Program-made: the position numbers and the translations under genes
Shown here: one piece after another, positions 2,678-47,334 of the stretch
Numbering within the stretch: position 1 is the stretch's first letter
Layout: each line of letters opens with the position of its first letter
From: an uncultured Elusimicrobia bacterium
Lineage (GTDB): Bacteria; Elusimicrobiota; Elusimicrobia; UBA1565; UBA9628
Direction: 5' to 3'
DNA: 64,000 nt
Assembly: GCA_964358485.1 (NCBI GenBank)
Contig: CAYHPY010000009.1
Span: 294 to 64,293, forward strand
Notes under the pieces: generated by a model
The model's input: the letters and a program-made list of their open reading frames with translations, nothing else
Told to the model about the DNA's origin: nothing
Database searches by the model: none

Positions 2678-2717
2678 AGGGTCTTTGGGCCCCGCAGGGA
2701 TTGGGGCTTAGGACCCT
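2678..2717. promoter_or_regulatory. Two WGGGYC-N4-GRCCYW boxes (2678-2693, 2702-2717)
   Basis: AGGGTCtttgGGCCCC and TGGGGCttagGACCCT, 24 bp apart; the proximal box is 22 nt from TACACT (2655-2650, minus strand). Confidence 0.65.
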
Positions 2718-3961
2718 TCGAGGGTGCGGCGAAACGCGCGGGCCTTGCGGTTGACGGCCGCGGCGAAAGCCCGGTAGCGCCGGGCTCCTTCCGGAGTCCG
2801 GAGCGTCCGCGAATCGTGTTCGATCCACGCCAGGGTCCGCTTGGTCCCGGCGATGTTGCGGCGCAAGGGCGTGATCTGGTCCGCTTCGTAGACTTCGCGC
2901 TGATCCGCGGAGTGTCCGATGGATTCCATGGACCGCAGGACTTCTTCCCGGCGAAGCAGTTCTTTCTCCTTTCGTTTGAGGGACCGGGAGTGCTTGGCGG
3001 CGTTATTCTCCAGTTGGGCGAGATAGGCCTTCAGGTTCGAGCCGATGAGCGGGATGTTTCCCTTGTACTCCTTGCCGAGCCATCGGACGAAATCCGGGAA
3101 GCTTTTCTTGAACTGCTCCAGGCCCTTGCCCTCGAAGCTGCGGGGGCGGATGGGAATGCCGAGCTCGGTCATGACCCGCCAATCGGTCAGGTAGGCGTCC
3201 AATTCCAACTCCAGGGCGTCCGAGGGAACGCCCTCGGATTTTTGGACGACGTGCAGAAGTTCGTGGACCAAGGTCGGGGCGACCTCGATGAGCGGGAGCT
3301 TGCGGTGGACCAGGCTCAGGGTGACGACCTCGGTGTCGAAGTCGTAGGTTCCCAGGTTTGTGATTCTCTGCACTACGACCGTGACGGGGCGGCCGCGCTT
3401 GACGGCCATCGCCTCGACTCGGGCCAGCACGCGCCGGGCGGCGGCCGACCTGGAGGCCTCCTCCAAAACCAGGGACACCCAGAGGGCGTCCCCGGGATCG
3501 GCCACGCTCAGGTAACGCGGGAGGACGGAGTCCGTGAGCGGGAGTCCAGGAACGGACTCCGGGGCGGCGTTCACCGGCAGGGGGCCTTTATTGCGATGAT
3601 CGAAAACGCGGCCGGCGGCTTCCTTGGCTTGATCCTCGGGAGCGGGCGCGGCGTCCGGGGCGGGAAGGAATTCGGCGGCTTGCTCCAAGCCCTCCGAGGC
3701 CGGCCGGGGGGCCGGGGAATCCGGGGATTCGGTTCCGGGGGCGGGGTGAACTTGCCAGCCGGACGGGGTCGCGAGAATCGATTTGAGGCCCGGCAAGGCG
3801 ACGGCCGGCGCCCTGCCCAATCCCGGGGAAAGCGCCGAAGCGGGAAGGGGCCTGGCCGCGAAAACCGACGCCGTGGGGCTGAGCTGGATTCGGACCGGAG
3901 CCACCCGAACCGTTTGCGACCAACCCGCCGCGACCGCCGCCGCCAAAAGCGCGTTTATCAT
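2708..3961 (-). CDS. Secreted HExxH zincin-like protein with Pro/Ala-rich N-terminal region and coiled C-terminus
   Basis: Signal-like N-terminus; LVHELLHVVQ...LELELDAY. Confidence 0.65.
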   Translation of the reverse strand: MINALLAAAVAAGWSQTVRVAPVRIQLSPTASVFAARPLPASALSPGLGRAPAVALPGLKSILATPSGWQVHPAPGTESPDSPAPRPASEGLEQAAEFLPAPDAAPAPEDQAKEAAGRVFDHRNKGPLPVNAAPESVPGLPLTDSVLPRYLSVADPGDALWVSLVLEEASRSAAARRVLARVEAMAVKRGRPVTVVVQRITNLGTYDFDTEVVTLSLVHRKLPLIEVAPTLVHELLHVVQKSEGVPSDALELELDAYLTDWRVMTELGIPIRPRSFEGKGLEQFKKSFPDFVRWLGKEYKGNIPLIGSNLKAYLAQLENNAAKHSRSLKRKEKELLRREEVLRSMESIGHSADQREVYEADQITPLRRNIAGTKRTLAWIEHDSRTLRTPEGARRYRAFAAAVNRKARAFRRTLEGS

Positions 3962-3995
3962 GGCCGCACTTTACAAAAAGCGACGCCCGGGTCGA

Positions 3996-4057
3996 TGGGC
4001 CGGAGGGCCTAGAAGTCAATGACAGGGGGCCCAGGCCGCAATGGGCCCTCCGACCCT
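3996..4057. promoter_or_regulatory. Two boxes in a divergent promoter region (3996-4011, 4042-4057)
   Basis: TGGGCCggagGGCCTA and TGGGCCctccGACCCT; each is 22 nt from a -10-like hexamer (TAAAGT minus strand 3973-3968; CATACT 4080-4085). Confidence 0.7.
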
Positions 4058-4091
4058 CCCCGGGGCCTAGAAACCGGCGCATACTTAGGGT

Positions 4092-5975
4092 ATGAATAAA
4101 TTCCTCACGGTTGCGGCGGTTCTGGCGGCGGGGGCGGTTTCGGCCCAGGAAACCCCGGTGTCCAATAGGAGCAAGTCGGCGGTCCCCCCTCCCCCCGTGA
4201 CTACTGAAAAGATCAAGGAAAATAAAGAAGAATCCGTGTTCCCCGTGGCCCTGAAACTTTCCGAGGACGCCGCCGATTTGGCTCTGCGCTACAGCTTCGG
4301 CTCCCGGAGCTTCCTCCAACTGACCCCCTTCGTCCACGCCGGGGCCTTGGCCCCCTTCGGCGGCACTTCCCATCCCTACTCCATTTTGGACCAGTCCCCC
4401 TATCTGATGGGCGGGGCCAAGCTGGAGCACAGCGGCAATTTCGAGGCCCTGGGAGTGGTGACCGGGGGCTACCTGAACATGCGCTCCCACAAGGGCATCG
4501 CCGACCCGGACGGCGGCGCCGCCTCCCCGGCCAGCTCCCTGCGCAAACAACAGGATTTCAGCCAGAAGTGGATGACCTCCAGCGCCTACGCGGATATGGG
4601 CAAGGTCTTCACGGTTTCTCAAAACGTCAAAACGGCCTTCTGGGTGGCGGCCGACGCCTTCGGCTATCAGGCGCTCGGGGCCGATTCCAAGTACGGCGCC
4701 GGCGACGGCCTCATCGAGGCCAATATCGGAAATCTTTGGATGTACAAAAAAGGACGCAACGAGTTCAGCCTGGTGGGCGACCTCCGTTTGGAAGGGGCGT
4801 CCAAGACCATGTACCGCAATGGGGATTACACGGTGTCTCCGGCCGGAACGGTGGGCGCCGAGTACGCCTATGATCTGGGTTCTTCCCGGATCAAAACCGG
4901 CGTCGAAACCTCCCTGCAGCCCGCCGACCTGGGGATCCGCCCCTACGTGGGCTGGTCCAACTCCAAGGTGGACACCACCTTGGCGGGAAATTTCCGGCAG
5001 AGCCGCAACGACTTTTACCCGGACGTCACGGGCCTTGCCGCCGACGTGAAATACCGGGTGGCCTCCGGCGTGCAGGTCGGCGTGCTGGCCAACTACTCCC
5101 GGGAGCAGTTCTCCATGGCCCCCGGGCCGGAGCAGTACTACAGCGCGATGGGCACGCTCACCATCGAGATCGACCGGCTCTTCAAATCCGAGTCCAGCTA
5201 CCGCGCCCGCCGCGCCCCGGTCCAGAACTACCGGCCCTCGGATTCGACCGAGATGAACAACCGCCTCCCGGGAGACGCCTACGCGGCCACCTTCCGCCAG
5301 GCGCTCCAGTCCTCGGAGAATTTCGACCAGTTCGTCAAACGCCTGCCCATGAACGGCACCGACGACGTCCTCAAGGCGGTCTCGGCCTTCACCTCCTCCT
5401 TCGGCAACAACAACTACAACAACAACGAGGGCAGCCCCGAGAACGTGAACTCGATCGAGGAGCTCTACAAGCGGGGTCGCGCCAGCTACCTGACCGGCAA
5501 GGACGATCCCATCCTGGTCTGCATCGGCTCATCGCAGTTCGCGGCGGTTTTGGCCGAGGAGCTCGGCAAGAAGGCAGGGGTCCCCATCCAGGCCATGGCC
5601 ACCACGGTCTCGGTCCCGGACAAGAAGGGCGTCTCCTCCGGCCACGCGGTGGCCGCCATCAAGACCAAGGAGTACGGCATCGTCTTCGTCGATTGGGGCC
5701 AACTGACCCCGACCCACACCTACGACACCCGCCAGGCCCTGCGGATCTATCAGGCTCTTCAGGGAGTTCCCGAGCTCATGCACGCGGTCACCGACGGCCG
5801 GGACGGGCGTCATGTGGGCTACCTGTTCAGCGAGGAGGGAAAGATCTACGTGCGCAACCTGACCTTCCACGCCGAGATGCCCGAGTCCACCCTGCCCCGC
5901 CTCTTCGAGGACGACCCCCGCGGCCACGACACCTCGATCGGCCGCTACCGCGACCTCACCCGCAAGAAATTCTAA
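4092..5975 (+). CDS. Exported protein: beta-rich N-terminal region plus C-terminal transglutaminase-like (Cys-His-Asp) domain
   Basis: Signal peptide; alternating aromatic/Gly beta-strand pattern over about 300 aa; LVCIGSSQF...GHAVAAIK...FVDWGQ. Confidence 0.55.
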   Translation: MNKFLTVAAVLAAGAVSAQETPVSNRSKSAVPPPPVTTEKIKENKEESVFPVALKLSEDAADLALRYSFGSRSFLQLTPFVHAGALAPFGGTSHPYSILDQSPYLMGGAKLEHSGNFEALGVVTGGYLNMRSHKGIADPDGGAASPASSLRKQQDFSQKWMTSSAYADMGKVFTVSQNVKTAFWVAADAFGYQALGADSKYGAGDGLIEANIGNLWMYKKGRNEFSLVGDLRLEGASKTMYRNGDYTVSPAGTVGAEYAYDLGSSRIKTGVETSLQPADLGIRPYVGWSNSKVDTTLAGNFRQSRNDFYPDVTGLAADVKYRVASGVQVGVLANYSREQFSMAPGPEQYYSAMGTLTIEIDRLFKSESSYRARRAPVQNYRPSDSTEMNNRLPGDAYAATFRQALQSSENFDQFVKRLPMNGTDDVLKAVSAFTSSFGNNNYNNNEGSPENVNSIEELYKRGRASYLTGKDDPILVCIGSSQFAAVLAEELGKKAGVPIQAMATTVSVPDKKGVSSGHAVAAIKTKEYGIVFVDWGQLTPTHTYDTRQALRIYQALQGVPELMHAVTDGRDGRHVGYLFSEEGKIYVRNLTFHAEMPESTLPRLFEDDPRGHDTSIGRYRDLTRKKF

Positions 5976-5976
5976 A

Positions 5977-6045
5977 GTTGGTGCCTGGCATTCATATTCT
6001 TCAAATTCTCCGAGAAAGTGGAGAATATGAATGCCAGGCACCAAC
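5977..6045. repeat. REP/REPIN-like inverted repeat with perfect 24-bp arms between convergent genes
   Basis: GTTGGTGCCTGGCATTCATATTCT (5977-6000) and its exact reverse complement (6022-6045); related copies at 42903, 44606 and 46541. Confidence 0.85.
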
Positions 6046-6051
6046 GATTGT

Positions 6052-7720
<1,669 letters not shown>

Positions 7721-7779
7721 GGACTCGGCGCTCCGTGCGGCTCCCCGAGCGGAGAGGGAGCTTCGCAAGCAGGCGTCGA

Positions 7780-8187
7780 TTATACCATTTTACGCCGAGG
7801 ATGGGCGATGGGGGGGTGGTGGATGAATTGAATGACGACGCCCTCGGGATCGCGGGTGTAGAGGGAGCGCGCGCCGTCGCGGTGGGTTTTTGGTTCCTTG
7901 ATTAAAGGGACTCCGTGAGCCTTCAAATGCGCGGCCCAGGCGTCCACGTCCTCGGCCCGCTTGAGCATGATCCCGAAATGGTCGAGGGCGGAGGTCCCGG
8001 AAAGCGGCTCGTCGGTCCGGTGCAGGGCTAGGTTGTCCAGGTCCCGGATCAGGTAAACATTGTCGCGATCGGGCCGCCATTCCACCCGGTAGCCGAGAAT
8101 TCCGGCGTAAAATTTCTCGGCGGTCTCCAAGTCCCGCACCTTGAGGGCGACGTGTCGGATTCCGAGGGTTTTCGGCGGGGCCTTCAT
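7780..8187 (-). CDS. VOC/glyoxalase family protein
   Basis: IRHVALKVRDLETAEKFYAGILG, LDHFGI and SLYTRDPEG motifs. Confidence 0.88.
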   Translation of the reverse strand: MKAPPKTLGIRHVALKVRDLETAEKFYAGILGYRVEWRPDRDNVYLIRDLDNLALHRTDEPLSGTSALDHFGIMLKRAEDVDAWAAHLKAHGVPLIKEPKTHRDGARSLYTRDPEGVVIQFIHHPPIAHPRRKMV

Positions 8188-8215
8188 CGGGGCAATATAG
8201 TAGAATTGCCGCCCG

Positions 8216-9085
8216 ATGGCAACGATGAAATGCCCGAGATGCCTCACCGAGCAGGCCGATGGCGGGGGGGCGTGCGTCCGGTGCAAGATCGTTTTCTCCG
8301 AATACGGGCACCGGGAAGCCGAGGCTCTGGCCCCGGAGGCGCCGCCCTCCGCGGCCGGCACCGACCGGCGCAAGACCCTGGCCAATGCATTCACCTTCGT
8401 CGTCATCGGCGCGGCCGGGGCGTGGTTGTTCGTGCCGCCCGCCGGCAAGCCCCTGCCCAAAGGGGCCTTCGAGCATCCCCGCTGTTATTTCGCGATGGTC
8501 CCCATCCTGGGCTGGAAGGAGATGCTCGGCGGGATGGGCGTGGGAGCGTGCGGCACCGCGGAGACCATTTTGGGCAAGCCGAAGGTCATCGAAGCCTACA
8601 AATCCGAGGGGGCGGCCGGCGCGTCCGGAGAGCCGGCCACCCTGAGCGTCATCGTCGCGCCCCAAGAATTGCCCTCTCTGGGAAAGACGGTTCCGCCGAC
8701 GCTTGTGGCCTCCTATCCGGTGGGCCTCGGGGATTACTACAATCTTCGGACCGCCGCCAGCGACATCATCGAAGTGGACCGGCTCAAATCGGCCCGCCTC
8801 GTGGCACAGGCCAAGCGCCTGGTCGGGGGCACGGAGCGGGATTTTTCCATTTTCATCGCTTTGGTGCCCGGCCGGGATCGGACCTACATCCTGCGGGGCG
8901 TGACCGAGGACTCCTCGGTCCTCTCCCGTTGGCAGATCGCGTTGGATTCCTTCCGCGTCACCCAGCGGCCCCTCAACTATTCCCACGGGATCAAACGGGT
9001 CATCGAGGGGCAGATCGAGGATAAGCTCATCGGCCTGGTGATTGCCGCCGCCGTGGTGTATTGGCGGCTGATGTTCAAAAGCTAG
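8216..9085 (+). CDS. Zinc-ribbon membrane protein
   Basis: CPRC...CVRC N-terminus, one TM segment after it and one at the C-terminus. Confidence 0.65.
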   Translation: MATMKCPRCLTEQADGGGACVRCKIVFSEYGHREAEALAPEAPPSAAGTDRRKTLANAFTFVVIGAAGAWLFVPPAGKPLPKGAFEHPRCYFAMVPILGWKEMLGGMGVGACGTAETILGKPKVIEAYKSEGAAGASGEPATLSVIVAPQELPSLGKTVPPTLVASYPVGLGDYYNLRTAASDIIEVDRLKSARLVAQAKRLVGGTERDFSIFIALVPGRDRTYILRGVTEDSSVLSRWQIALDSFRVTQRPLNYSHGIKRVIEGQIEDKLIGLVIAAAVVYWRLMFKS

Positions 9086-9127
9086 CGATATCCCGCCCCT
9101 CGCCGGAATTGGTATAATCGGGGCCCC

Positions 9128-11110: not shown

Positions 11111-11146
11111 AATGAAGCCCCCGCGGAGCGGAGGCTTCATTTTAAG
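11106..11146 (+). terminator. Hairpin after ispG overlapping the start of the next gene
   Basis: CTTAAAATGAAGCC...GGCTTCATTTTAAG inverted repeat followed by a T-rich tract. Confidence 0.6.
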
Positions 11147-14993: not shown

Positions 14994-15076
14994 CCCGCGA
15001 CGATACAAAATCCGCCGCCGCCCTTGAAAACGGCCTTTCCCGGGGCTACACTCAGGGAGTCATCGGAGGTGGGTTC

Positions 15077-15439: not shown

Positions 15440-15442
15440 GGG

Positions 15443-21038: not shown

Positions 21039-21057
21039 ACATGGAAAGGAGTTGAAA

Positions 21058-27824: not shown

Positions 27825-27864
27825 TAGTCCCTTGGACCCAGGGCGCGGTGGGTCCAAGGCTCCT
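27825..27864. promoter_or_regulatory. Two boxes (27825-27840, 27849-27864)
   Basis: TAGTCCcttgGACCCA and TGGGTCcaagGCTCCT, 24 bp apart; the proximal box is 22 nt from TATCCT (27887). Confidence 0.6.
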
Positions 27865-27899
27865 GGAGAGTTTTCCCGCCCCGGGGTATCCTTGGGGAA

Positions 27900-32752: not shown

Positions 32753-32783
32753 GAGGCCGAGAATAGCAATTTGGCGGCCGCTA

Positions 32784-32812
32784 TTGACAGTCCCGATATT
32801 AACCGGTAATAT
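32784..32812 (+). promoter_or_regulatory. sigma70-type promoter
   Basis: TTGACA-N17-TAATAT, 7 nt before ATG 32820. Confidence 0.7.
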
Positions 32813-32819
32813 GAAGCCA

Positions 32820-33860: not shown

Positions 33861-33882
33861 TTCCCCCCTCACAGGAGATCAT

Positions 33883-35106: not shown

Positions 35107-35130
35107 TCCCCACCCTGCCCTGACGGCAAT

Positions 35131-35220
35131 TGGGCCCTAGGGCCCAGGTTTCGTCCGCCAAAAGACTGTTCCTTTCTGGCCCAGAGGCCCCTGGGGAGCC
35201 AACCCCCTCCCGGTTAAACT
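35131..35220 (+). promoter_or_regulatory. Boxes at 35131-35146 and 35177-35192 plus -10-like TAAACT
   Basis: Perfect palindrome TGGGCCctagGGCCCA; TGGCCCagagGCCCCT ends 22 nt before TAAACT (35215-35220). Confidence 0.65.
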
Positions 35221-35284
35221 AATATCGGTCGCCCCTTTTCCCCGCCCTTTTGGGTCGGGGATAATTTGATTTCGGAGATTGATC

Positions 35285-37567
35285 ATGGAACATGAAAACG
35301 CACGGGCATTGACTCGCCGTCTGCGGGCCCTCTTGAGATTGGCCGGGGCGATGGCGATGAGTCTTGCGGTCGGTGTGCTTCCCTCCATCGCCCGCGCGGC
35401 CCAAAGCAGCCGAAGCAAGTTTGATTCGTCCAGTTTCCTGCCCGCCTCCCCGGTCCGAGGCGCTTTCCGGGCCGATAACGACAAAGACAAGGACAAGGAG
35501 GATGGCGGCCGCAAGGAGCGGGAAGAACAGGACCGAAAGAATCGGGACGAACAGGAACGGAAGAATCGGGAAGAACAAGACCGGCGGCAAAAAGAGGAGG
35601 CGGAAAACCGTCGGCGCCAGGAAGAGGAATCTCGCAAGCGCCAGGAAGAAGAGAACCGCAAGCGGCAGGAAGAGGAGTCTCGCAAGCGGCAGGAAGAAGA
35701 GGGCCGCAAGCGTCAGGAAGAAGAGAACCGCAAGCGGCAGGAAGAAGAGTCCGCTCGGCAACGCCTGGAAGAAAGGCGTCGTCAGCAGGAAGAGCAGGAA
35801 GCCAAACGCAAACGGGACGAAGAAGAGGGCCGCAAGCGGCAGGATGAAGAGAACCGCAAGCGGCAGGATGAAGAAGGCCGTAAGCGGCAGGATGAAGAGA
35901 ACCGCAAGCGCCAGGATGAAGAAGGCCGCAAGCGCCAGGACGAAGAGAAGCGCAAGCGGGATGAAGAAGAGGGCCGCAAGCGGCAGGATGAAGAAGGCCG
36001 CAAGCGCCAGGACGAGGAAAAGCGCAAGCGGGACGAAGAAGAAGGGCGCAAGCGGCAGGATGAAGAGAACCGCAAGCGGCAAGACGAAGAAGGCCGCAAG
36101 CGCCAGGACGAGGAAAAGCGCAAGCGGGACGAGGAAGAGGGCCGCAAGCGCCAGGACGAAGAGAAGCGCAAGCGGGACGAGGAAGAGGGCCGCAAGCGGC
36201 AGGATGAAGAAGGCCGCAAGCGCCAAGAAGAGCGTCGGCGGCTTGAGGAAGAGGCGCGCCGCCGCCAGGAAGAAGAAAACCGCCGCCGCCATGATGAGGA
36301 ACGCCGCCGCCCGGATCCCGAGGAGCGCCGCCGGCAGGATGAGCGCCGTCGCCAGGAAGAAGAGGGCCGCCGCCGCCAAGAAGAGGAGAATCGTCGTCGG
36401 CAGGATGAGGAAAATCGCCGCCGCCAGGAAGAAGAGCGCCGGCGCAACGATCCCGAGGAGCGCCGCCGCCAGGAAGAAGAAGGCCGGCGCCGTCAGGAAG
36501 AGGAGACTCGCCGCCGTCAAGAACAGGAGCGGCAGCGTCAGGAAACGGAGCGCCGCCACCAAGAAGACGAGCGCCAGCGCCGGGAGCGTCCCACGGACAC
36601 CCCGCGTCCTCCCGTCTTCCACCCCCGGCCCGAGCGGGGCGGGAACGGCCGTTCCCACATGCCCCGGCCCGAGCCGATCCAGGACGGCGGGCGCATCGTC
36701 CGGGACCGCTATCAGCCCCGGCATCCCGATTACCGTTGGGACGGCAAGCCCCGGACCCACAAGCCCTGGAAAGGGCATCCCGACCACCGGACGATCATCG
36801 ACAACGTCACCGTCATCAACGAGATCAACCGCTACTCCGAAACCGAGCGTATGCCCAACAATTACTTCTGGCACGAATACGGCGACGGTTACTGGTGCCA
36901 TTACTACGACGATTGGGGCTACCATTGGGTGGGCTTCTATTGGGGCGATTCCTATTATTGGACCCGGTACTACGATGGGCGCTGGTGGTACTTTGACGGC
37001 GTCTCGGATCGGTGGTGCTACTGGCACGACGGCTACTGGTGGTATCAGGATCCCTCACGCGTCGAGGTGGTCTACGTCTACGTGGGCGACGGCTACTACC
37101 GCTACGGCGGGCAAACCGGACGCGTGATCCTGGACCCCGAGCGTCCGGGCCGCAAGCTCTTCGTGGATACCGACGGCAACCGCATGGTCGAGCTCTTCGG
37201 AGACAACGGCCGGGCGGTGCTCTTCGACCTCAATGAGCGCGACCCGAACGGGGATCCTAAATTCCTGGCTTTCCTGGGCGCGGGCGCGGTGGACGTGCGC
37301 TTCTCGGAGCCCGGCGCCTGCGACACGGGCTGCTGCCTGAAAATGGTGGTGGTCTATCAGGACGGGACCTTGAAGCTCTTCGACGCCTACGGCGAGTTGA
37401 TCAAGACCCGGACCGCTCCTTACGCCGACGCCTTGAGCAACACCGAGGTGGGTTGGGGCGACGCCTCCGCGTCTTCCGGCTTTGAAAAAAGCCGGGCCAA
37501 AAAGATGATCCAGGTCCTGGACAACGCCCAGGGCGACTGGGACAAATTATTCGAGGCCGCCCAATGA
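35285..37567 (+). CDS. Exported protein with very long E/R/K/Q repeat, Tyr/Trp-rich region and C-terminal domain
   Basis: GGAG RBS; signal-like N-terminus; about 350 aa of KRQDEEGR-type octads; YWxxYYDG/WWY repeats. Confidence 0.8.
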   Translation: MEHENARALTRRLRALLRLAGAMAMSLAVGVLPSIARAAQSSRSKFDSSSFLPASPVRGAFRADNDKDKDKEDGGRKEREEQDRKNRDEQERKNREEQDRRQKEEAENRRRQEEESRKRQEEENRKRQEEESRKRQEEEGRKRQEEENRKRQEEESARQRLEERRRQQEEQEAKRKRDEEEGRKRQDEENRKRQDEEGRKRQDEENRKRQDEEGRKRQDEEKRKRDEEEGRKRQDEEGRKRQDEEKRKRDEEEGRKRQDEENRKRQDEEGRKRQDEEKRKRDEEEGRKRQDEEKRKRDEEEGRKRQDEEGRKRQEERRRLEEEARRRQEEENRRRHDEERRRPDPEERRRQDERRRQEEEGRRRQEEENRRRQDEENRRRQEEERRRNDPEERRRQEEEGRRRQEEETRRRQEQERQRQETERRHQEDERQRRERPTDTPRPPVFHPRPERGGNGRSHMPRPEPIQDGGRIVRDRYQPRHPDYRWDGKPRTHKPWKGHPDHRTIIDNVTVINEINRYSETERMPNNYFWHEYGDGYWCHYYDDWGYHWVGFYWGDSYYWTRYYDGRWWYFDGVSDRWCYWHDGYWWYQDPSRVEVVYVYVGDGYYRYGGQTGRVILDPERPGRKLFVDTDGNRMVELFGDNGRAVLFDLNERDPNGDPKFLAFLGAGAVDVRFSEPGACDTGCCLKMVVVYQDGTLKLFDAYGELIKTRTAPYADALSNTEVGWGDASASSGFEKSRAKKMIQVLDNAQGDWDKLFEAAQ
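35510..36585 (+). repeat. 24-bp-period coding tandem repeat
   Basis: Recurrent CGCAAGCG(G/C)CAGGA(T/C)GAAGA units, roughly 40 imperfect copies. Confidence 0.9.
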
Positions 37568-37590
37568 AGCGGCGCGTGGGAGACAAGAAC

Positions 37591-38109: not shown

Positions 38110-38190
38110 GGGGACGTCTGGGGGTGGTCGCCGAAAATTTCGTTGGCGAAAGTGAAATTATTATTTATCTATCTTTTTAAAAGATATTTT

Positions 38191-40304: not shown

Positions 40305-40999
40305 ACCGCGCCTCCGGTCCTGCTTTGTTCGGTGAGTCGTCCATCTTCCATCGTGTACAGCCGGTCCATGAATTCCGCCAGCCTGGGGTCGTGGGTGACG
40401 ACCACCACGGCCGCCCCGGACTCCTTGGCCCGGCGGACCAGAAGCTCGATGACCGACCGCCCGTTCTTGGCGTCCAGGGCTCCGGTCGGTTCGTCGGCCA
40501 GGACATAAGAGGGATTGCCGGCCAGGGCCCGGGCGATGGAAACCCGTTGTTTTTGGCCGCCGCTCAAATCCTCGGGAAGAAATTCCATGCGGTCGGAAAG
40601 GCCGACGGCTTCCAGGGATTTTTCCGCCTCCGCGCGGGCGGCGTCCGGCTCAAGCCCCCGCAGGCGCAGGGCCGCCTGCACGTTCTCCGAGGCCGTCAGG
40701 GCCGGGAATAAATTGAAGTGTTGGAACACGTAGCCGATCTTGGCGCGGCGCACCCGCGCGGTTTCGGCCGAAGTGAGGGAGGAGAAGGCCCGGCCCTCGA
40801 CGAGAACGTCTCCCCGGGTGGGCGCCAGCATTCCCCCCAACATGGTGAGCAAGGTGGTTTTCCCGGAGCCCGACGGGCCCATGAGCGCCACCACTTCCCC
40901 GGGGGCGGCGGTCATGTCCGCCCCGCGGACCGCTTCCACCTTTAGATTGCCCTGGGTGTAGACTTTCCAGACCCCGCGGGCTTCGATGGCGGTTTTCAT
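40301..40999 (-). CDS. ABC transporter ATPase
   Basis: GPSGSGKTT, LSGGQKQRVSIAR and LADEPTGALD. Confidence 0.95.
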   Translation of the reverse strand: MKTAIEARGVWKVYTQGNLKVEAVRGADMTAAPGEVVALMGPSGSGKTTLLTMLGGMLAPTRGDVLVEGRAFSSLTSAETARVRRAKIGYVFQHFNLFPALTASENVQAALRLRGLEPDAARAEAEKSLEAVGLSDRMEFLPEDLSGGQKQRVSIARALAGNPSYVLADEPTGALDAKNGRSVIELLVRRAKESGAAVVVVTHDPRLAEFMDRLYTMEDGRLTEQSRTGGAV

Positions 41000-42153
41000 G
41001 CGCGAAACACCATGGCGGGATCCAAGGCCAAGGCCTTGCGGACGCTGATGATGGAGGCGCCCAGGCACATCGCCACGTCCAGGGCGAAGACCGCGGGATA
41101 CATCAGGGGCGGCAGAACGATGGTCAGGCCCATGCTGTCGAGCCAGCGGGCGCCGAACCACACGGCGCCCAGGGAGACCACGAAACCCAGGACGGCGCTG
41201 ACGCCGGCCTGCGTCCAGAGGATGACCCGCAATTCCGCGTCGGTGGCGCCCAGGGCCTTCAACGTGGCGTATTCCCGCAAATGCTCCATGGTGGCCGCGT
41301 AAATGGTCTGTCCGACGATGGCCAGGCCCACGCCCAGGGCCAGCATGGTCATCGCCATGAAGCCGAAGCCCATGCCGGTTTGGATGGTCCAATACCGCCG
41401 GGTTCGCCGACTGTAATCGTTCTTTGTTAAAACATCAACATACGGAAGTCTTTCTTGGAGCCGTTGTTTTAGCTCTTCGGCCGTCACGCCCGCTTCCGCC
41501 TTGGCAAGGACGAAGACCGTATTTCTTTCCCCGAGATAAGATGCAAGCTTTTGCGCCGTTTGATAAGACACGAACACGAAGGGCGCCGTCGTCATGGACC
41601 GAATCCCCCGGGTGAGCCCCACGATCTTGACCTCGCGTTCCATGATCTCGACCCGGTCCCCGACTCCATTGACTCCGAGCCTTTCCAGGGAGGACTCGTC
41701 CACGATCATCCGCTCGCCTCCTTGAACATCTGAAGGTTCGCCGGAAACCAAGTTCCAAGGCTCTCCCCAACCCGCTTCCGGGGAGGGGTGGTAGCCGATA
41801 AGCTCCACCTGTTCGGTTCCGCCGCCGGGGCGGCGGAGAAATGCCCAAGCGAAGATCAGGGATTTGGCCTGGGCCACGCCCGGGGTGGAGCGCACCTTGG
41901 TCAGATATCGCTCGGGGAAGGGTCTGGACCAGTCGAAATTTGGGGAATTTTTGCTCACCACCCAGACATCGGCGTCGGAGCGGTCGATCATGCAGGAGGC
42001 GTTGTGCATGAATCCCAGGTACATCCCCCCCTGCATGAAGATGAGCATGATGGCCACCGCCACCCCTCCGGCGGTGATGGCGAAGCGCACGCGGTCGTGG
42101 AGCAGGATGCGGATGGCTACGAAGCGCAGGTCGGCCGATTTCTGGACTGACAT
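40996..42153 (-). CDS. ABC permease (DevC/FtsX-like)
   Basis: RILLHDRVRFAIT, EHLREYATLKALGA and DPAMVFRA. Confidence 0.9.
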   Translation of the reverse strand: MSVQKSADLRFVAIRILLHDRVRFAITAGGVAVAIMLIFMQGGMYLGFMHNASCMIDRSDADVWVVSKNSPNFDWSRPFPERYLTKVRSTPGVAQAKSLIFAWAFLRRPGGGTEQVELIGYHPSPEAGWGEPWNLVSGEPSDVQGGERMIVDESSLERLGVNGVGDRVEIMEREVKIVGLTRGIRSMTTAPFVFVSYQTAQKLASYLGERNTVFVLAKAEAGVTAEELKQRLQERLPYVDVLTKNDYSRRTRRYWTIQTGMGFGFMAMTMLALGVGLAIVGQTIYAATMEHLREYATLKALGATDAELRVILWTQAGVSAVLGFVVSLGAVWFGARWLDSMGLTIVLPPLMYPAVFALDVAMCLGASIISVRKALALDPAMVFRA

Positions 42154-42163
42154 ATCAGTCTAG
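42142..42163. promoter_or_regulatory. Putative TetR operator 2, overlapping the permease start codon
   Basis: CTGGACTGAC-AT-ATCAGTCTAG, a near copy of operator 1. Confidence 0.7.
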
Positions 42164-42180
42164 TCTCCGGTCAAAAAAAA

Positions 42181-42801
42181 TCATCCCAGCCATCCCTTGG
42201 TTCGAATGCCCGACTCCAGCAAATCCAGCCATTGATCCACGATCCGGTCCAAATCCGGTTTTTCCTCGGGAATGATGTAGTGCAGCACGACGCTCAAGAC
42301 GATCCCCGAAAAGATCACGCTCAGGAAATGCGGGTCCACCCCTTTCTTGATGAAGCCCACCTTCTGGAACTTGGTGATGTGGTTCTGCCAATGCGAAAAG
42401 CAGGTGTAGAGCATGGCGTTGACCTTGCTCTCGAAATCCGGCTCGATGGCGTTGGCCTCCCGGAACACCACCTTGGCCAGGTCCTTGTTTTGCGCGAAGA
42501 GCTGGAACCACTCCATGAGGGATTCCCGGATGCGGGCCCGGACCATCAGGGGATTGGTGTAGGAGCGGGCCAGCTCCTTGTCCACCACGCCTTGGAACAG
42601 TTCGAAGTACCGGTCCATCACCGCGTGAAAAACCGCCAGCTTGGAGTCGAAGTAAAGGTAGAAAGTCCCCCGCGCCACCCCGGCCGCCTCGATGATGTCG
42701 GTGATGGCCGCCGACCGGTATCCTTTTTGGGCGAATACCTTGATCGCCGCGTCCACGAGCTGGCTGCGCCGCTCCTCTTTGTCTAAAACCGTTCTGGACA
42801 T
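42181..42801 (-). CDS. TetR/AcrR family regulator
   Basis: AAIKVFAQKGY...IIEAAGVARGTFYLYFDSK HTH. Confidence 0.95.
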   Translation of the reverse strand: MSRTVLDKEERRSQLVDAAIKVFAQKGYRSAAITDIIEAAGVARGTFYLYFDSKLAVFHAVMDRYFELFQGVVDKELARSYTNPLMVRARIRESLMEWFQLFAQNKDLAKVVFREANAIEPDFESKVNAMLYTCFSHWQNHITKFQKVGFIKKGVDPHFLSVIFSGIVLSVVLHYIIPEEKPDLDRIVDQWLDLLESGIRTKGWLG

Positions 42802-42803
42802 GA

Positions 42804-42847
42804 CTAGACTGACACGTCAGTCTAGCAGACCATCGCCCCAAAGTCAA
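42804..42847 (-). promoter_or_regulatory. tetR promoter with overlapping operator 1
   Basis: TTGACT-N17-TAGACT; perfect palindrome CTAGACTGAC-AC-GTCAGTCTAG at 42804-42825. Confidence 0.78.
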
Positions 42848-42902
42848 TGGTGCCGGTGGTTGACATGCTTGCTTTGCTTGCCTTGGCTAGGACGGCGGGC
42901 GG

Positions 42903-42931
42903 GAATTTGAAGAATATGAATGCCAGGCACC
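42903..42931. repeat. REP-like repeat copy
   Basis: 29/29 identical to the reverse complement of 5980-6008; a degenerate inverted partner lies at about 42849-42870. Confidence 0.85.
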
Positions 42932-42949
42932 GCGGGACCGCTGGAGTGC

Positions 42950-43378
42950 TTATTGGGAAAGGCGAACTCCGTGAACTTCGAAGCCCATGGCTTGGGCGGC
43001 GGTCCCCAATTGGAGGTCGTGGGTCAGAAAAGCCAGGTCGCTCTTTCGCTCCGCGCGGTAGAGCAAGGCGCTCGCCAAATGGATCGCGTCCAGGGTGGCG
43101 AGGATGGTTGGAAAGGGCTCCGCGGCCCGATCTAAAATTTCACGGTCCAGGGAAATGACGCTGATGAGCTCGAATATTTCCAGGAGCGCCTTTCGCTTTT
43201 CCGAGACTTCGCCGTCCTGAATGTCCCCTTGAAGGCGAAGCCGGTCCAGGGCGCGAAGCGATTCGATCAGGGCAAGTTCGCTGGTCGCGCCCTTTCCCCA
43301 ACGATTCCAGTCTTTGACCGGATCCTTTTCGTCGAGCAATTTCCTAAGAATGACCGAGGAATCCAGGTAGGCGTTCAC
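42950..43378 (-). CDS. vapC: VapC-type PIN toxin
   Basis: AYLDSSVIL, LATLDAIHLASA and FLTHDLQL. Confidence 0.9.
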   Translation of the reverse strand: MNAYLDSSVILRKLLDEKDPVKDWNRWGKGATSELALIESLRALDRLRLQGDIQDGEVSEKRKALLEIFELISVISLDREILDRAAEPFPTILATLDAIHLASALLYRAERKSDLAFLTHDLQLGTAAQAMGFEVHGVRLSQ

Positions 43379-43632
43379 CGGCGCTCCCGTTCCTCTCGCA
43401 GGAGTTTGGTGCTATCCGTCTTTTTTTTGAGCGGCCTGAATTTCATTTTATCGATGTCGCCCAACGGCTTGGCCGCTTCGCGGATGGTCAGCCCTCTGCG
43501 CGTTTCCCCCGCGGAGACGACTCTCGCCACGGGCGTTTTGCGGTCGAAAATCAAAAGCTCCCCCCCGCTCCGGACTTGCCCGAGGTAGTAGCTCAATTTC
43601 GCCTTGAGCGTGGCGATCTTAACCTCTATCAT
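43375..43632 (-). CDS. Phd/YefM family antitoxin
   Basis: VKIATLKAKLSYYLGQVRSG...IFDRKTPVARV; TTGACA-N17-TACAAT-N6-ATG promoter with an ATGAC...GTCAT palindrome. Confidence 0.88.
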   Translation of the reverse strand: MIEVKIATLKAKLSYYLGQVRSGGELLIFDRKTPVARVVSAGETRRGLTIREAAKPLGDIDKMKFRPLKKKTDSTKLLREERERR

Positions 43633-43794
43633 GACCATATTGTAGTCATAAATAGTCATATTGTCAAGACGCGGAAAGTGCCGGAGTAACCCCTCTGTTG
43701 CACCATGTAACCAGGCTGTGAATTTACAGCCGGGGGTCCCGGGGCTATACTGAACCAAATCAAATTTTCCGTGTCCTACCCTGGAGGCGATGAA

Positions 43795-44601
43795 ATGATT
43801 ACCGATGCCGCCCGTCCCGCTCCCGTCCCTCTGGGGGACTACGAAAACCGTGCCATCCTGGACGCCGCGCGAAGCCTCCCCCCTCCCCGGGCCTCGGACA
43901 TCATCATTTTGGCCCCGGTTCCAGACTTCTGCCTAAGGTGCCCGAACTGCCAATTCCTGGACGACCGCATCCGCCCGGAGTGCCATGTTTGCGGAGTCAT
44001 CTTCGCCAAATGGTCCAAGCGGACGGCGCCGGTCCCTGAGCCGGAAAGCGGGTTCTGGGGCTGGGTGGATGTAATCCTGGATTTGGTTTTGGGGAACCCC
44101 CGCAAATTGGCGGTTTTCGCGGCGGCGATGGCCGTGTTGTGGGTGGCCGACGGGCCCCGTCGCCTGCATGCGCCCGTGGCTCCGATCGCTCCGGGAGCGT
44201 GGAAGCCCGCGGGTCCATTGTCGTATCGAATCGGCTACCTCAAACCGGAAGGAATGATGGGGACTCTGCCCATTTACCACGAAGGCGACCGGGTGGGCTA
44301 TATTTTGGAGGTCAAAAACGTCGGCCCGGGGCCGATCTCGGGCCTCCGAATCAAGTCGATCCAGGAAGTTCCCGGGCGGGGAGCCAAACCGGCCCAAACC
44401 TTGTCGGACATCCGCCTCTTCGGCGCGCCCCAACTCCAGGTCGGGGAAGCCGCGCAATTCCACGGGGTTTTCACCGTGGCGGGGTTCAATACGACGGGAA
44501 GCCACACCGAATTCACCCATCTGACCTTCGACCAACGGGGGTCCACGGGAGAGCTCTTCACCTTCTCTGACATTCCCAACGCGGGAGTCATCGATCCCTA
44601 A
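43795..44601 (+). CDS. Zinc-ribbon, TM, Ig-like-domain protein
   Basis: GGAGG RBS; CPNC...CHVCGVIFAKW, a TM segment, then YILEVKNVGPGPISG. Confidence 0.65.
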   Translation: MITDAARPAPVPLGDYENRAILDAARSLPPPRASDIIILAPVPDFCLRCPNCQFLDDRIRPECHVCGVIFAKWSKRTAPVPEPESGFWGWVDVILDLVLGNPRKLAVFAAAMAVLWVADGPRRLHAPVAPIAPGAWKPAGPLSYRIGYLKPEGMMGTLPIYHEGDRVGYILEVKNVGPGPISGLRIKSIQEVPGRGAKPAQTLSDIRLFGAPQLQVGEAAQFHGVFTVAGFNTTGSHTEFTHLTFDQRGSTGELFTFSDIPNAGVIDP

Positions 44602-44605
44602 GCGC

Positions 44606-44637
44606 GAGAAAGTTAAGAAAGTGGATACCTGGCACCA
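44606..44637. repeat. REP-like repeat copy (variant)
   Basis: GAGAAAGTTAAGAAAGTGGATACCTGGCACCA aligns ungapped with 6012-6043. Confidence 0.75.
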
Positions 44638-44639
44638 AT

Positions 44640-44676
44640 AAAAAAACCGGGCGGCCGTTGGGCCGCCCGGTTTTTT
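44640..44676. terminator. Bidirectional intrinsic terminator
   Basis: A-tract, CCGGGCGGCC-GTTG-GGCCGCCCGG stem, T-tract, between convergent genes. Confidence 0.9.
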
Positions 44677-44685
44677 CTTGAGTCT

Positions 44686-45312
44686 TTAGTCGAACTTGAT
44701 GTCGGCCGGCTTGATGTCCTCGAGCTTCTTGGACATCCGGTCCCAGCGACCGCCACGGTCATGATCCGGGCGCTCGCGGCACCAGACGTTGCGTGAGTCG
44801 ATCAGGTAGTTCTGCCCTTCCTGCCGGGAATTGAAGGAACCGACGGCATGGGAGGTGGCGGCGTCCGCGAAAGCCACGCTCCAGTCCTCGTTTCCTTTCT
44901 GCCAGCTGTCTTCGGTCTCCCAGCGGCCGTTGAAGCCGCAGGAACCACCGGTGCCCCAGGACTTGCTGACGGCGCCGTAGAGCTGGATGTTGCGCCTGCT
45001 GCTGAAGTCCATGGGTTGTCCAACGTCCTTTCCAAGGACGGTGAAGTTCCAGTTGTCCGCGTTGGGCACCTTGCCGGAGAAGGTCGCGGTGCGGCCGTCT
45101 TGCTCGAGCTTCACCGTGAACTTTCGGCCGCTGGAGGCGCCGAACTCGACCTTGAGGGGGCCGGCGAAGAATTCTACGGTCTTGCCGTCCTGCGAGGCGA
45201 TGCGAACGGGGGCGGATCCGGCCAGGGTCAACTGTCCGGTGCGGGTTTCTTCGCCGCAGGCCGCCAGGAAAATGGCGCTTGCGACGGTGAGGAACATGGT
45301 CCTTCTGTTCAT
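44686..45312 (-). CDS. Lipoprotein of unknown function
   Basis: AAGGAG RBS; MNRRTMFLTVASAIFLAAC lipobox. Confidence 0.8.
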   Translation of the reverse strand: MNRRTMFLTVASAIFLAACGEETRTGQLTLAGSAPVRIASQDGKTVEFFAGPLKVEFGASSGRKFTVKLEQDGRTATFSGKVPNADNWNFTVLGKDVGQPMDFSSRRNIQLYGAVSKSWGTGGSCGFNGRWETEDSWQKGNEDWSVAFADAATSHAVGSFNSRQEGQNYLIDSRNVWCRERPDHDRGGRWDRMSKKLEDIKPADIKFD

Positions 45313-45463
45313 GGTCTCGGCTCCTTGCTGCAGGGATCCCCTGATATCAATCAAACCAGGAAGCCGGGTGGGGTCGGCTTCCTGGTTTCATCCGATTTGA
45401 GGTCGGATCGTGGATACCCCGGGGCCAATCCCCCGGGTTACAGGTTCCTTATTATCGCACCGA

Positions 45464-45519
45464 AAGGCCTGTCGGCTCAAGGGTCGGAGGGCCTAGAGAT
45501 AATTAGGTCTAAAGGCCTA
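45464..45519. promoter_or_regulatory. Boxes at 45480-45495 and 45504-45519 (weaker one at 45464-45479)
   Basis: AGGGTCggagGGCCTA and TAGGTCtaaaGGCCTA, 24 bp apart; the first is 23 nt from minus-strand TG-n-GATAAT (45456-45451). Confidence 0.7.
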
Positions 45520-45843
45520 GGCGCCTGGGCGCGCGGAACGGGGCCCCTTGGCGGGGATCGGGAAGAATCCGATGCGGATGCCGAAAGCCGCCAGGATGAG
45601 TTCCAAGGTGCCGAGCTCCGGGTTGCCGGCCGGGGAGAGAGTCTTGTACAGGCTGGTGCGGCTCAATTTGGTATTCTCCGCGAGCTTTCCGATGCCGCCC
45701 TGGGCCTGGACGACGTTTCGGATGGCCTTGAGAAGGTATCGGATTTCCCCATCCGCGGAGACGGAATTGAGGTAGGCCGCCGCTTCACCGGGGTTTTTCA
45801 ATTTGCCGAGCAAATAGTCTTTGTGAGGAATGGTTCCGATCAT
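45517..45843 (-). CDS. Addiction-module antidote protein (HTH), orphan
   Basis: LKNPGEAAAYLN...LLKAIRNVVQAQGGIGKLAENTKLSRTSLYKTLSPAGNPELGT. Confidence 0.88.
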   Translation of the reverse strand: MIGTIPHKDYLLGKLKNPGEAAAYLNSVSADGEIRYLLKAIRNVVQAQGGIGKLAENTKLSRTSLYKTLSPAGNPELGTLELILAAFGIRIGFFPIPAKGPRSARPGA

Positions 45844-45929
45844 CTTAGCCTCCCGTTCGGGGGAAGGGTTGCTAATCAAGTGTATCCTATAGACGACATG
45901 CTGTCAAGGGGCGAGGTTTCTTCCCCCTA

Positions 45930-46139
45930 CTAAACTACGACGTAAGCCGCCCGGGCGGCATGCCGAGGGACGGGGTGCCCGTCCTCTTTAAGTCCGTCCA
46001 GGTGGAAGGAAATGGCATCCCGGATGTTTTTTTCCACTTTTTCCCGGGTGGGGCCGGTGGCGATGCAGCCGGGGAGGTCCGGACAAAAGGCCGAAAAGTT
46101 CCGGCCCGCTTTTTCGATGACCACGAGGAATTTGTTCAT
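45930..46139 (-). CDS. hicB: Short HicB antitoxin
   Basis: FLVVIEKAGRNFSAFCPDLPGCIATG. Confidence 0.88.
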   Translation of the reverse strand: MNKFLVVIEKAGRNFSAFCPDLPGCIATGPTREKVEKNIRDAISFHLDGLKEDGHPVPRHAARAAYVVV

Positions 46140-46321
46140 TTTAATCCCGCCTGCTTTAGAATGCTGTTTAGCGTCCCTGGCGACAGATCGTCGCCTGGAT
46201 GGCCGGCGATCGTTACGCGGCCGGGCTTGTTTGGATGATGGAATTGCCGGTGACTCCCTCTCGTCTCGACGAGATACCAACCGTCCTTTGTGATCAGCCG
46301 TAGAACGTCCCGCAACTTCAT
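46136..46321 (-). CDS. hicA: HicA toxin
   Basis: DGWYLVETRGSHRQFHHPNKPGRVTIAGH...GTLNSILKQAGL. Confidence 0.92.
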   Translation of the reverse strand: MKLRDVLRLITKDGWYLVETRGSHRQFHHPNKPGRVTIAGHPGDDLSPGTLNSILKQAGLK

Positions 46322-46540
46322 TTTTAGTATAGCCCCTGCGGGTCGCATTCGTCAATCCCGCAATATTAATACGAGTGAGCGAGGGCTTTTGTTCCATATC
46401 AATTTTAAAATTCGACGATTTATCGACGGGCGGATTTAATCGTCCGTGGGGGCGGGGGTCCCGGTCAATCCGGTTCCTTGACCTTTCCATGTGTCGCTGA
46501 TGGATAGACGCCAAGCGGGAACGAAATCTTTCAGGCGGAA

Positions 46541-46570
46541 AGAAAGGTAAGAAAGTGGATACCTGGCACC
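46541..46570. repeat. REP-like repeat copy (variant)
   Basis: AGAAAGGTAAGAAAGTGGATACCTGGCACC, 29/30 identical to 44607-44636. Confidence 0.8.
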
Positions 46571-46571
46571 G

Positions 46572-47234
46572 CTAGGGTTGGGCTTGGCAGAGCTTCACGG
46601 CCTCGGGGTACTGGACATTGTCTTGCCGGGCGGAGCGGTAGCAAGCCACGGGGTCCACGGCCGATACGCTGCCTTTGCAGAGGACGATGGCTTCCAGGAA
46701 GGCCACATTGGCCTCGCGGGCGTTCTGGTAGCAGCGGGCCGGGGCGTCGGGGGAGACGGAGCCTTCGCAAAGGGTGAGGGCCTCGATGTACGGGACATTG
46801 CGCTCGCGGGCCAGGCCGTAGCAGAGGGCGGGCGCCTCGGAGGAGGGGCTGCGCTTGCAGAGCGTGACCGCCTCTTTATATTGCACCAGCAGGGCGCGGG
46901 CCTTGGAGTAGCAGGCGGCGGGGCCGTCCGGGGAAGGTTGGCTGCGGCAGGCCGAGATGGCTTCGAAATAGCCCATGCCGCGGCGCCGGGCGTCGGAGTA
47001 ACAACGGGCCGGGGCGTCGGAGGCGGGGGTTTCCCGGCAGAGGATGGCGGCGTCGCGGGCCTCGACTCCGTTTTCGCAGGCGCGGCGTTCACAGGCGCTT
47101 TTGCGATTGGCAAATCCCGCCTTGGATTGGGAGACGATGGAGGTGATGGCGGAGGCGGGGAGTTCGGGGAGGGGCTGGGGGGCGGCTACGGAAACGGAGG
47201 CAAGGAAGGGAAGGATGAGGAAAGATGATTTCAT
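46572..47234 (-). CDS. Secreted cysteine-rich helical repeat protein
   Basis: Signal peptide; five or more ~30-aa repeats of PAxCYxxAR...YxEAxxLC. Confidence 0.75.
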   Translation of the reverse strand: MKSSFLILPFLASVSVAAPQPLPELPASAITSIVSQSKAGFANRKSACERRACENGVEARDAAILCRETPASDAPARCYSDARRRGMGYFEAISACRSQPSPDGPAACYSKARALLVQYKEAVTLCKRSPSSEAPALCYGLARERNVPYIEALTLCEGSVSPDAPARCYQNAREANVAFLEAIVLCKGSVSAVDPVACYRSARQDNVQYPEAVKLCQAQP

Positions 47235-47271
47235 GGGTACGACATTATAAACGGACTTTCCGAAAAGAATA

Positions 47272-47334
47272 AGGGTCCAAACGCCCAATGGAACTGGGTC
47301 TTTTAACGGAACCGGTCATGGGTCCAACGGCCTA
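47272..47334. promoter_or_regulatory. Three phased boxes in a divergent promoter (47272, half-site 47295, 47319)
   Basis: AGGGTCcaaaCGCCCA, TGGGTC half-site and TGGGTCcaacGGCCTA; the outer boxes are each 22 nt from TATAAT (minus, 47249) and TATTAT (47357). Confidence 0.7.

Follow-up and report, generated by a model that had tools for sequence, protein, structure and literature searches.

The window analyzed here, a 64,000-nucleotide stretch of DNA (G000:C9:294-64293), comes from the 4.43-Mb assembly G000 (65% GC, 246 contigs) of an uncultured Elusimicrobia bacterium. It carries eight genes, designated below by their start positions, that are preceded by copies of a 16-bp palindromic box and encode predicted exported proteins (Table 1). 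Signal peptide-like N termini are present in all eight products (8/8), in agreement with the original prediction, which had drawn attention to the box as the candidate binding site of a secretome regulator. The HExxH motif was found in the products of genes 2643, 3961, and 27900 and in the M3 peptidase encoded by gene 47369.

The exact pattern WGGGYC-N4-GRCCYW occurs eight times in the window, compared with 0.88 matches expected, and none of 100 shuffles (0/100) reached this number. These matches represent six sites, two of which are palindromic and so counted on both strands. Thirteen boxes had originally been listed. When scored with a position weight matrix (PWM) trained on the whole genome, 11 of them reach a score of at least 8, whereas the box at 35177 is weak (4.8) and no match exists at 47295 (-2.2). 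The proposed spacing between box and -10 hexamer was recovered at all eight genes when reread from the sequence, with 22 nucleotides (nt) at seven genes and 23 nt at gene 45312. At six of the eight genes, the ATG lies only 6 to 9 nt past the hexamer, and their mRNAs are therefore likely leaderless. A 64-nt leader containing GGAG precedes the ATG of gene 35285, and the long leader of gene 45312 is explained by a riboswitch.

Table 1. Boxes, -10 hexamers, and associated genes in the window (strand in parentheses; PWM, position weight matrix score; aa, amino acids)
Feature	Position	Details
Exported HExxH protein, 304 aa	1729..2643 (-)	no Pfam family
-10 hexamer TACACT	2650..2655 (-)	then 6 nt to ATG, leaderless
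Proximal box, gene 1729-2643 (-)	2678..2693	AGGGTCTTTGGGCCCC, PWM 13.6; 22 nt to hexamer
Distal box, gene 1729-2643 (-)	2702..2717	TGGGGCTTAGGACCCT, PWM 15.5; 24 bp from proximal box
Exported HExxH protein, 417 aa	2708..3961 (-)	DUF6782 metallopeptidase match weak, below cut-off
-10 hexamer TAAAGT	3968..3973 (-)	then 6 nt to ATG
Proximal box, gene 2708-3961 (-)	3996..4011	TGGGCCGGAGGGCCTA, PWM 15.6; exact pattern; 46 bp from box 4042
Proximal box, gene 4092-5975 (+)	4042..4057	TGGGCCCTCCGACCCT, PWM 12.0
-10-like hexamer CATACT	4080..4085 (+)	not strict TANNNT; then 6 nt to ATG
Exported protein, 627 aa	4092..5975 (+)	no Pfam or NCBIfam family
Distal box, gene 27900	27825..27840	TAGTCCCTTGGACCCA, PWM 18.2
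Proximal box, gene 27900, weak	27849..27864	TGGGTCCAAGGCTCCT, PWM 8.6
-10 hexamer TATCCT	27887..27892 (+)	then 7 nt to ATG
Exported HExxH protein, 292 aa	27900..28778 (+)	
Strong perfect-palindrome box	35131..35146	TGGGCCCTAGGGCCCA, PWM 21.9; 46 bp upstream of weak proximal box
Weak proximal box, gene 35285	35177..35192	TGGCCCAGAGGCCCCT, PWM 4.8
-10 hexamer TAAACT	35215..35220 (+)	22 nt past weak box; GGAG precedes ATG at 35285
Exported protein, 760 aa	35285..37567 (+)	no family
Lipoprotein-like exported protein, 208 aa, FLAAC lipobox	44686..45312 (-)	no family
2'-dG-II purine-family riboswitch aptamer	45377..45448 (-)	RF03165, 77.3 bits vs gathering score 60
-10-like hexamer GATAAT	45451..45456 (-)	23 nt past proximal box
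Proximal box, riboswitch promoter	45480..45495	PWM 15.1
Distal box, riboswitch promoter	45504..45519	TAGGTCTAAAGGCCTA, PWM 21.6
Cys-rich exported protein, 220 aa, 13 Cys	46572..47234 (-)	
-10 hexamer TATAAT	47244..47249 (-)	then 9 nt to ATG
Proximal box, gene 46572-47234 (-)	47272..47287	AGGGTCCAAACGCCCA, PWM 13.5
Proximal box, M3 peptidase gene	47319..47334	TGGGTCCAACGGCCTA, PWM 18.1
-10 hexamer TATTAT	47357..47362 (+)	then 6 nt to ATG
Exported peptidase M3, 697 aa	47369..49462 (+)	PF01432, 2.4e-128

The box is not confined to the window. Genes were called across G000 with a crude custom caller (3694 genes covering 89% of the genome; 10.5% counted as intergenic), and 84 of the 150 genome-wide matches of WGGGYC-N4-GRCCYW fall within this intergenic 10.5%. 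Changing the spacer to N3 or N5 abolished the intergenic enrichment. Iterative refinement yielded the palindrome TRGGYCYWWRGRCCYA (T-R-G-G-Y-C-Y-W-W-R-G-R-C-C-Y-A), in which two G's and the C of the half-site are the most strongly conserved positions (0.97, 0.95, and 0.97, respectively). With the resulting PWM, 133 intergenic sites scored at least 12, compared with 10.0 +/- 2.9 in dinucleotide shuffles of the intergenic DNA, and 104 scored at least 14, compared with 3.0 +/- 2.2, which corresponds to an approximately 13-fold to 35-fold enrichment. Across the whole genome, sites scoring at least 14 numbered 112 in intergenic and 23 in coding DNA. As the matrix was trained on the same genome that it scores, these enrichment figures are somewhat generous; the raw-pattern counts are unaffected. 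Overall, the observation is real, statistically strong, conserved, and much larger than the window.

The position of the box relative to the -10 element is similarly constrained. The hexamer TANNNT occurs exactly 22 nt past the box in 41 of 294 box directions, compared with 0 to 5 at nearly all other distances, with shoulders at 21 and 23 nt and echoes at 46 and 68 to 69 nt. Neighboring boxes are most often 24 bp apart (30 pairs), with a second peak at 46 to 47 bp. Among the 73 promoters in G000 that combine a box with a hexamer, the gap is 22 nt in 51, 23 nt in 12, and 21 nt in 10, and a distal box lies 23 to 25 bp from the proximal one in 30 (compared with 0 to 5 at control offsets). A start codon was found within 9 nt of the hexamer in 44 of the 66 box promoters with a scorable open reading frame (ORF), so most box mRNAs are probably leaderless. 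Leaderless mRNAs are apparently common in G000 in general: TANNNT lies 6 to 8 nt before about 480 called starts (6, 7, and 8 nt before 258, 131, and 94 starts, respectively; background, approximately 20 to 50).

Of 430 leaderless ATG promoters, 41 have a box at an offset of 21 to 23 nt and none at the control offsets (10 to 12, 15 to 17, 27 to 29, and 33 to 35 nt). The box-less leaderless promoters (n = 362) are sigma-70-like: a weak TTGAC precedes TAtAAT at a spacing of 17 bp, and the -10 is extended by a TG. In contrast, nothing recognizable was present at -35 in 53 box promoters, as the original prediction had claimed for the window in noting the lack of a good TTGACA. Instead, these promoters have the box at -50 to -35 and a weaker second box at -74 to -59, and the leaderless-ATG geometry places the center of the proximal box at -42.5. 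In one aquifer metatranscriptome run, 7% of the sampled sequence words were recovered, as contigs crossing intergenic regions in which start sites were not resolvable.

The leader of gene 45312 offers an independent check of one start predicted from a box. The RF03165 alignment spans model positions 1 to 71 of 71. The outer three model pairs of P1 are nonstandard in this aptamer, with standard pairing beginning at about 45445. The GATAAT hexamer at 45456-45451 would place the transcription start near 45445, where the standard P1 pairs begin. A terminator-like hairpin and a T-run downstream of the aptamer (approximately 45350-45395) are likely the expression platform of the riboswitch. The cited part of the report on the 2'-dG-II class describes it from "environmental sequence" (PMC6847200), and the present locus sets such a riboswitch in a defined promoter and organismal context, a box promoter in a metagenome-assembled genome (MAG) of the Elusimicrobiota.

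Genes downstream of the box are strongly enriched for exported products. A strict signal-peptide heuristic was satisfied by 33 of 53 box genes but by only 214 of 806 box-less leaderless genes (p = 1.7e-7), and a looser test for a hydrophobic segment gave 42 of 53 versus 369 of 806 (p = 1.7e-6). A Pfam scan of 47 target proteins returned some match for 23, leaving 24 of 47 with no Pfam family. Recognizable targets include peptidases (M3, M28, two S41, M50-like, and a CAAX protease), nucleases and lipases (endonuclease I and four phospholipase-D [PLD]-like enzymes), and cell wall or envelope proteins (Amidase_2, SLT, a beta-lactamase-like protein, and TonB_C). The targets are thus the dispersed, hydrolase-rich set that had been proposed, but in G000 this set is not purely a secretome: pyruvate phosphate dikinase, a methyltransferase, a PAS-GGDEF protein, an SDR, and a hybrid kinase of REC-HisKA-HATPase architecture are cytoplasmic members. 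Indeed, the top-scoring box of the genome (PWM 22.8) drives pyruvate phosphate dikinase, an enzyme of cytoplasmic central metabolism (G000:C34:2571-5380).

Conservation was assessed in 301 Elusimicrobiota genomes with a composite pattern consisting of the box, 23 N, and TANNNT, which has 21 matches in G000 compared with 4 control matches; controls mostly numbered 0 to 1 per genome. The pattern marks seven families of the same class, being present in 24/26 (f1), 4/4 (f2), 1/1 (f3), 87/88 (f4), 18/22 (f5), 4/4 (f8), and 1/1 (f11) genomes. Members of f4 have genomes of 1.2 to 2.6 Mb with up to 29 matches. The pattern was next to absent in the rest of the phylum sampled: other families of this class had it in 0/5 (f6), 0/3 (f7), 0/3 (f10), 0/1 (f12), and 1/2 genomes (f9; a single match), and a family of another class in 1/89 (f14). 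Upstream of the M3 peptidase gene, conservation is partial. The loci closest to this gene in named genomes all belong to groundwater Elusimicrobia or Elusimicrobiota MAGs (approximately 50% identity), and a box-like match within 300 bp upstream was found at 4 of 13 Elusimicrobia loci with orthologues.

The association with exported proteins recurs in small genomes. Three small box-using genomes, G260, G050, and G248, have 20, 21, and 29 composite matches, respectively. By eye, 9 of 13 downstream ORFs in G260 (approximately 50% GC) start with a visible signal peptide, mostly ending in AQ. In the single-contig relative G066 (1.64 Mb, 40% GC; 1.6 Mb analyzed), 38 of the 46 sites fall in intergenic DNA, a TANNNT hexamer is found at +22 for 24 of the 92 directions, and boxes are again spaced by 24 bp. 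The strict signal-peptide test was satisfied by 27 of 28 box-downstream genes in G066, compared with 403 of all 1461 called genes (p = 3e-14), although one of these 27, apparently a glycosyltransferase, is likely a false positive. In this genome, TGG, TTG, or ATG directly follows the box, at the normal place of a -35 element.

The closest counterpart among characterized systems is the DevR (DosR) box of Mycobacterium tuberculosis, the site of a NarL/DosR-family response regulator. According to the cited passages, DevR reads G4G5G6A7C8T9 in each half of its palindrome and strictly requires the third G and the C (G5 and C7 in the 18-mer), its promoters are distinguished by at least two tandem boxes (those of tgs1 are at -42.5 and -63.5), and the boxes must be in helical phase, 21 bp apart (PMC3177182). 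Base contacts are attributed to Lys179, Lys182, and Asn183 in the relevant section of a further report (PMC4082495), and a DosR dimer at about -43.5 is described, in the portion cited here, as contacting sigma region 4 and the C- and N-terminal domains of the alpha subunit (alpha-CTD and alpha-NTD; PMC13486717). Set against these descriptions, RGGYCY-WW-RGRCCY and GGGACT-WW-AGTCCC are in the same register and compatible at five of six half-site positions, the exception being position 4, which is Y here and A in the DevR box. The G and C critical for DevR are among the three most conserved half-site positions of the present box (0.95 and 0.97). Likewise, the proximal box is centered at -42.5 here and at -42.5 or -43.5 for DevR/DosR, in both cases abutting a poor -35, and tandem boxes, the hallmark there, are common here (30/73 promoters). 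The targets differ, being exported proteins here and dormancy genes for DevR. The box can also be read as a 7-2-7 site (TRGGYCY-WW-RGRCCYA), the layout of NarL/NarP sites, and shares its center with the lux box of LuxR-type regulators, but its sequence is unrelated to either. NarL/NarP sites and lux boxes are bound by GerE-type helix-turn-helix (HTH) dimers, and the lux box is centered at -42.5.

Response regulators of the GerE type are present in all five small genomes inspected (5/5), two in each; G000 also has two, one of them truncated at the end of a contig. A single group is shared by the small genomes and G000, with proteins starting VLIADDQTLFREGIKD and a recognition helix SVKTIKNHLN. 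The second regulator of the small genomes (helix NTVHVH) was dropped, having no counterpart in G000. The candidate from the shared group, P0001 (G000:C141:5304-5972), found best matches at E <= 1e-88 (64 to 89% identity) in 143/146 genomes from the seven families that bear the motif and in 0/154 other genomes, the best match outside being 7e-73. Among solved structures, P0001 is most similar to VraR (5e-36), followed by DevR, at only 8e-31, and NarL (6e-28); no NCBIfam equivalog model matched above its cut-off. The P0001 helix KTIKNH aligns with KTVKNY of DevR, so that the K-x-x-K-N triad that recognizes DNA, as given for DevR in the cited portions of its literature, is shared. In G260, the regulator gene is the last in an operon of dCache-HAMP-HisKA-HATPase kinase, REC-HisKA-HATPase kinase, and regulator; the last two genes are arranged identically in G000, where the first kinase gene is interrupted by the contig end. 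The putative feeding kinases are thus a dCache sensor and a REC-kinase hybrid, whereas DevS and DosT are haem/GAF sensors. A REC-HisKA-HATPase hybrid kinase encoded elsewhere in G000 (C104:2896-4122, minus strand) lies under a box promoter and shares 31% identity along its entire length with the hybrid kinase adjoining the candidate regulator; it may be a feedback link into the phosphorelay.

Taken together, these features suggest that a dimeric transcription activator uses the box as its operator. One dimer would occupy the 16-bp palindrome at -50 to -35 (center, -42.5), against the site of sigma region 4, and would stand in for the missing -35 of a sigma-70-type promoter with a TANNNT -10. 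A second dimer would often bind 24 bp further upstream (center, -66.5), and sometimes a third at 46 to 47 bp. In G000, this arrangement would drive approximately 70 mostly leaderless transcription units whose products are mostly Sec exported, including peptidases, nucleases, phospholipase-D-like enzymes, cell wall hydrolases, and many proteins with no family, and the same code would be used throughout one Elusimicrobiota class. The binder would be P0001 and its orthologues, which would receive phosphate from the dCache-HAMP sensor kinase via the REC-HisKA-HATPase hybrid kinase of the same operon. The sequences directly establish the motif with its geometry and enrichment, the bias of its targets, and its conservation, whereas activation (as opposed to repression), the binding protein, and the signal are inferred. 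We consider an activator-site regulon quite probable, whereas the assignment of the named regulator to the box appears evenly balanced, because of the points counted against it below. Both together are somewhat doubtful; the explanation as a whole, with P0001 named only as the most likely binder, is modestly favored.

Several observations weigh against this explanation. Transcription starts were placed indirectly, from leaderless ATGs and one riboswitch, and about one-fifth of the G000 targets are cytoplasmic. Seven genomes of the motif-bearing families have no exact composite match; in five of these (G276, G298, G060, G118, and G228), a pattern with one mismatch permitted was not above control in four. 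All five nevertheless hold a close orthologue of P0001 (E values of 1e-93 to 1e-102), so that four genomes have the regulator and no pattern. The correspondence between regulator and motif amounts essentially to one clade versus its sisters, because related genomes are not independent; it thus reflects few independent events, and many other genes must share this distribution. In lineages that lack the motif, homologues have an almost identical helix, SEKTVKNH, so specificity is not explained by the recognition helix. A DevR-type pattern (RGGAC-N4-GTCCY plus a -10) had 0, 0, 0, 0, and 1 matches in five genomes of motif-less lineages with a homologue, which gives no support either way. The boxes are 24 bp apart here (with shoulders at 23 and 25 bp; approximately 2.3 helical turns), in contrast to the in-phase 21 bp described for DevR in the source cited above. 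Furthermore, no box lies near the regulator operon in G000, G260, or G050, whereas DevR autoregulates. Finally, the regulator family was singled out because the box resembles DevR and NarL sites, rather than by an unbiased screen. This choice, the four genomes with the regulator and no pattern, the lack of a box at the regulator operon, and the helix shared with motif-less lineages favor the alternative that the same architecture and regulon are served by another DNA-binding activator, of another or undescribed HTH family, that happens to have the same clade distribution. We regard this as a serious but less probable alternative: the half-site fits the DevR box, as far as the cited sources describe it, in register and at the critical positions, with the same promoter position and tandem layout, and the other two families tested are mostly missing from small box-using genomes. 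A LysR-type binder was rejected, PF00126 being found in only one of five small genomes.

The other of these two families, CRP/FNR, had been suggested by the original prediction on the basis of a site at a class II activator position. That part of the suggestion held, as a single palindromic site at a fixed activator-like position (-42.5) replaces the -35, much as class II CRP/FNR dimer sites at about -41.5 overlap the -35 region. FNR sites likewise have a 5-N4-5 core and a center near -41.5, and G000 encodes four genes above the HTH_Crp_2 cut-off and 20 cNMP-binding domains, distributed over many contigs. However, the half-site TRGGYC is unrelated to the consensus half-sites TGTGA and TTGAT, and HTH_Crp_2 exceeded the Pfam cut-off in none of the heavy box users G260, G050, and G248 (0/3), in which the only weak matches are LexA-like proteins (G260:C1:141326-141934 and G248:C14:32710-33318; 202 aa, whose translations, inspected by eye, show a winged HTH and a C-terminal domain resembling S24 peptidases). 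A CRP/FNR-family binder is therefore highly improbable, and the nearest match is NarL/DosR. The box might instead be bound by a repressor or a nucleoid protein, or be a structural DNA element, with no role in activation; repressor operators, too, are typically palindromic. Such readings are nevertheless improbable, because repressors need no register as fixed as the 22-nt distance to the -10 (51 of 73 promoters, with 21 nt in 10 and 23 nt in 12), and because the box promoters, having no -35 of the kind found in box-less promoters, would be weak unaided. A large and functionally coherent promoter class could also mark an alternative sigma factor, with the box as a promoter element read directly by RNA polymerase. 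This is very unlikely: the box is a 2-fold symmetric 16-mer with a tandem copy 24 bp upstream, 22 nt separate its end from the -10 (too far for region 4 at normal spacing), the -10 is of the housekeeping type, and in low-GC relatives the normal -35 place directly after the box is occupied by TTG or TGG. Least credible of all is that the boxes, being multicopy, intergenic, and palindromic, derive from a repeated or mobile element or came along with gene duplications. Similarity between the promoters stops at the box, with no conservation of the flanks, the targets are not related as paralogues, with only 3 weak pairs detected among 53, the register to the -10 and ATG is fixed, and the box is kept in genomes of 40% to 65% GC.

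On the activator-site reading, the regulon is itself undescribed, but its mechanism would be a familiar one, in which a class II activator of the response-regulator type uses tandem boxes. A search of open-access papers and bioRxiv found no description of an Elusimicrobiota promoter or regulon. The regulon stands out because it is large, because it is tied almost exclusively to exported proteins in one small genome, and because it is conserved in a class whose GC contents range from 40 to 65%. The box provides a rule for predicting, from sequence, where transcription starts, which start codons are leaderless, and which exported proteins are coregulated across one class, names a testable pair of regulator and sensor, and offers a natural comparison with DevR, in which the half-site preference has changed at one base and the box spacing differs. 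A bolder and rather unlikely extension is that one response regulator acts almost as a dedicated sigma factor for the secretome of the whole class. If so, the box would replace the -35 at perhaps at least one-tenth of the transcription units in small genomes, the 24-bp out-of-phase dimers would imply an oligomer on DNA unlike that of any described NarL-family activator, and the whole set of surface proteins and exoenzymes would be switched by one dCache-sensed signal.

Some further observations concern variants of the box and its targets. The one-mismatch matches include sites with a 3-nt center followed by TTGG (TGGGCCTTTGGTCCC and TGGGCCTTTGGCCCC; G276:C97:18294-18337 and G298:C50:144701-144744). 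These sites stem from one pattern-less genus of the window's own family, in which the spacing within the box may have changed. In G000, a small cNMP-binding gene (C5:82610-82873) directly follows a box promoter (C5:82419). The products of box genes also share a compositional feature. Net charge (p = 0.21) and the A[QE] site (p = 0.19) did not differ significantly when a shared basic stretch after the signal peptide was looked for. However, the fraction of A, G, S, P, V, and T in the 40 residues past the signal peptide is 0.61, compared with 0.48 in other G000 proteins with a hydrophobic N-terminal segment (p = 8e-11). This stretch is poorer in D and E and in many of the products reads like AQ...VR..PVR repeats, and the corresponding stretch in low-GC relatives is K-rich. 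It may be a linker or sorting segment shared by these proteins.

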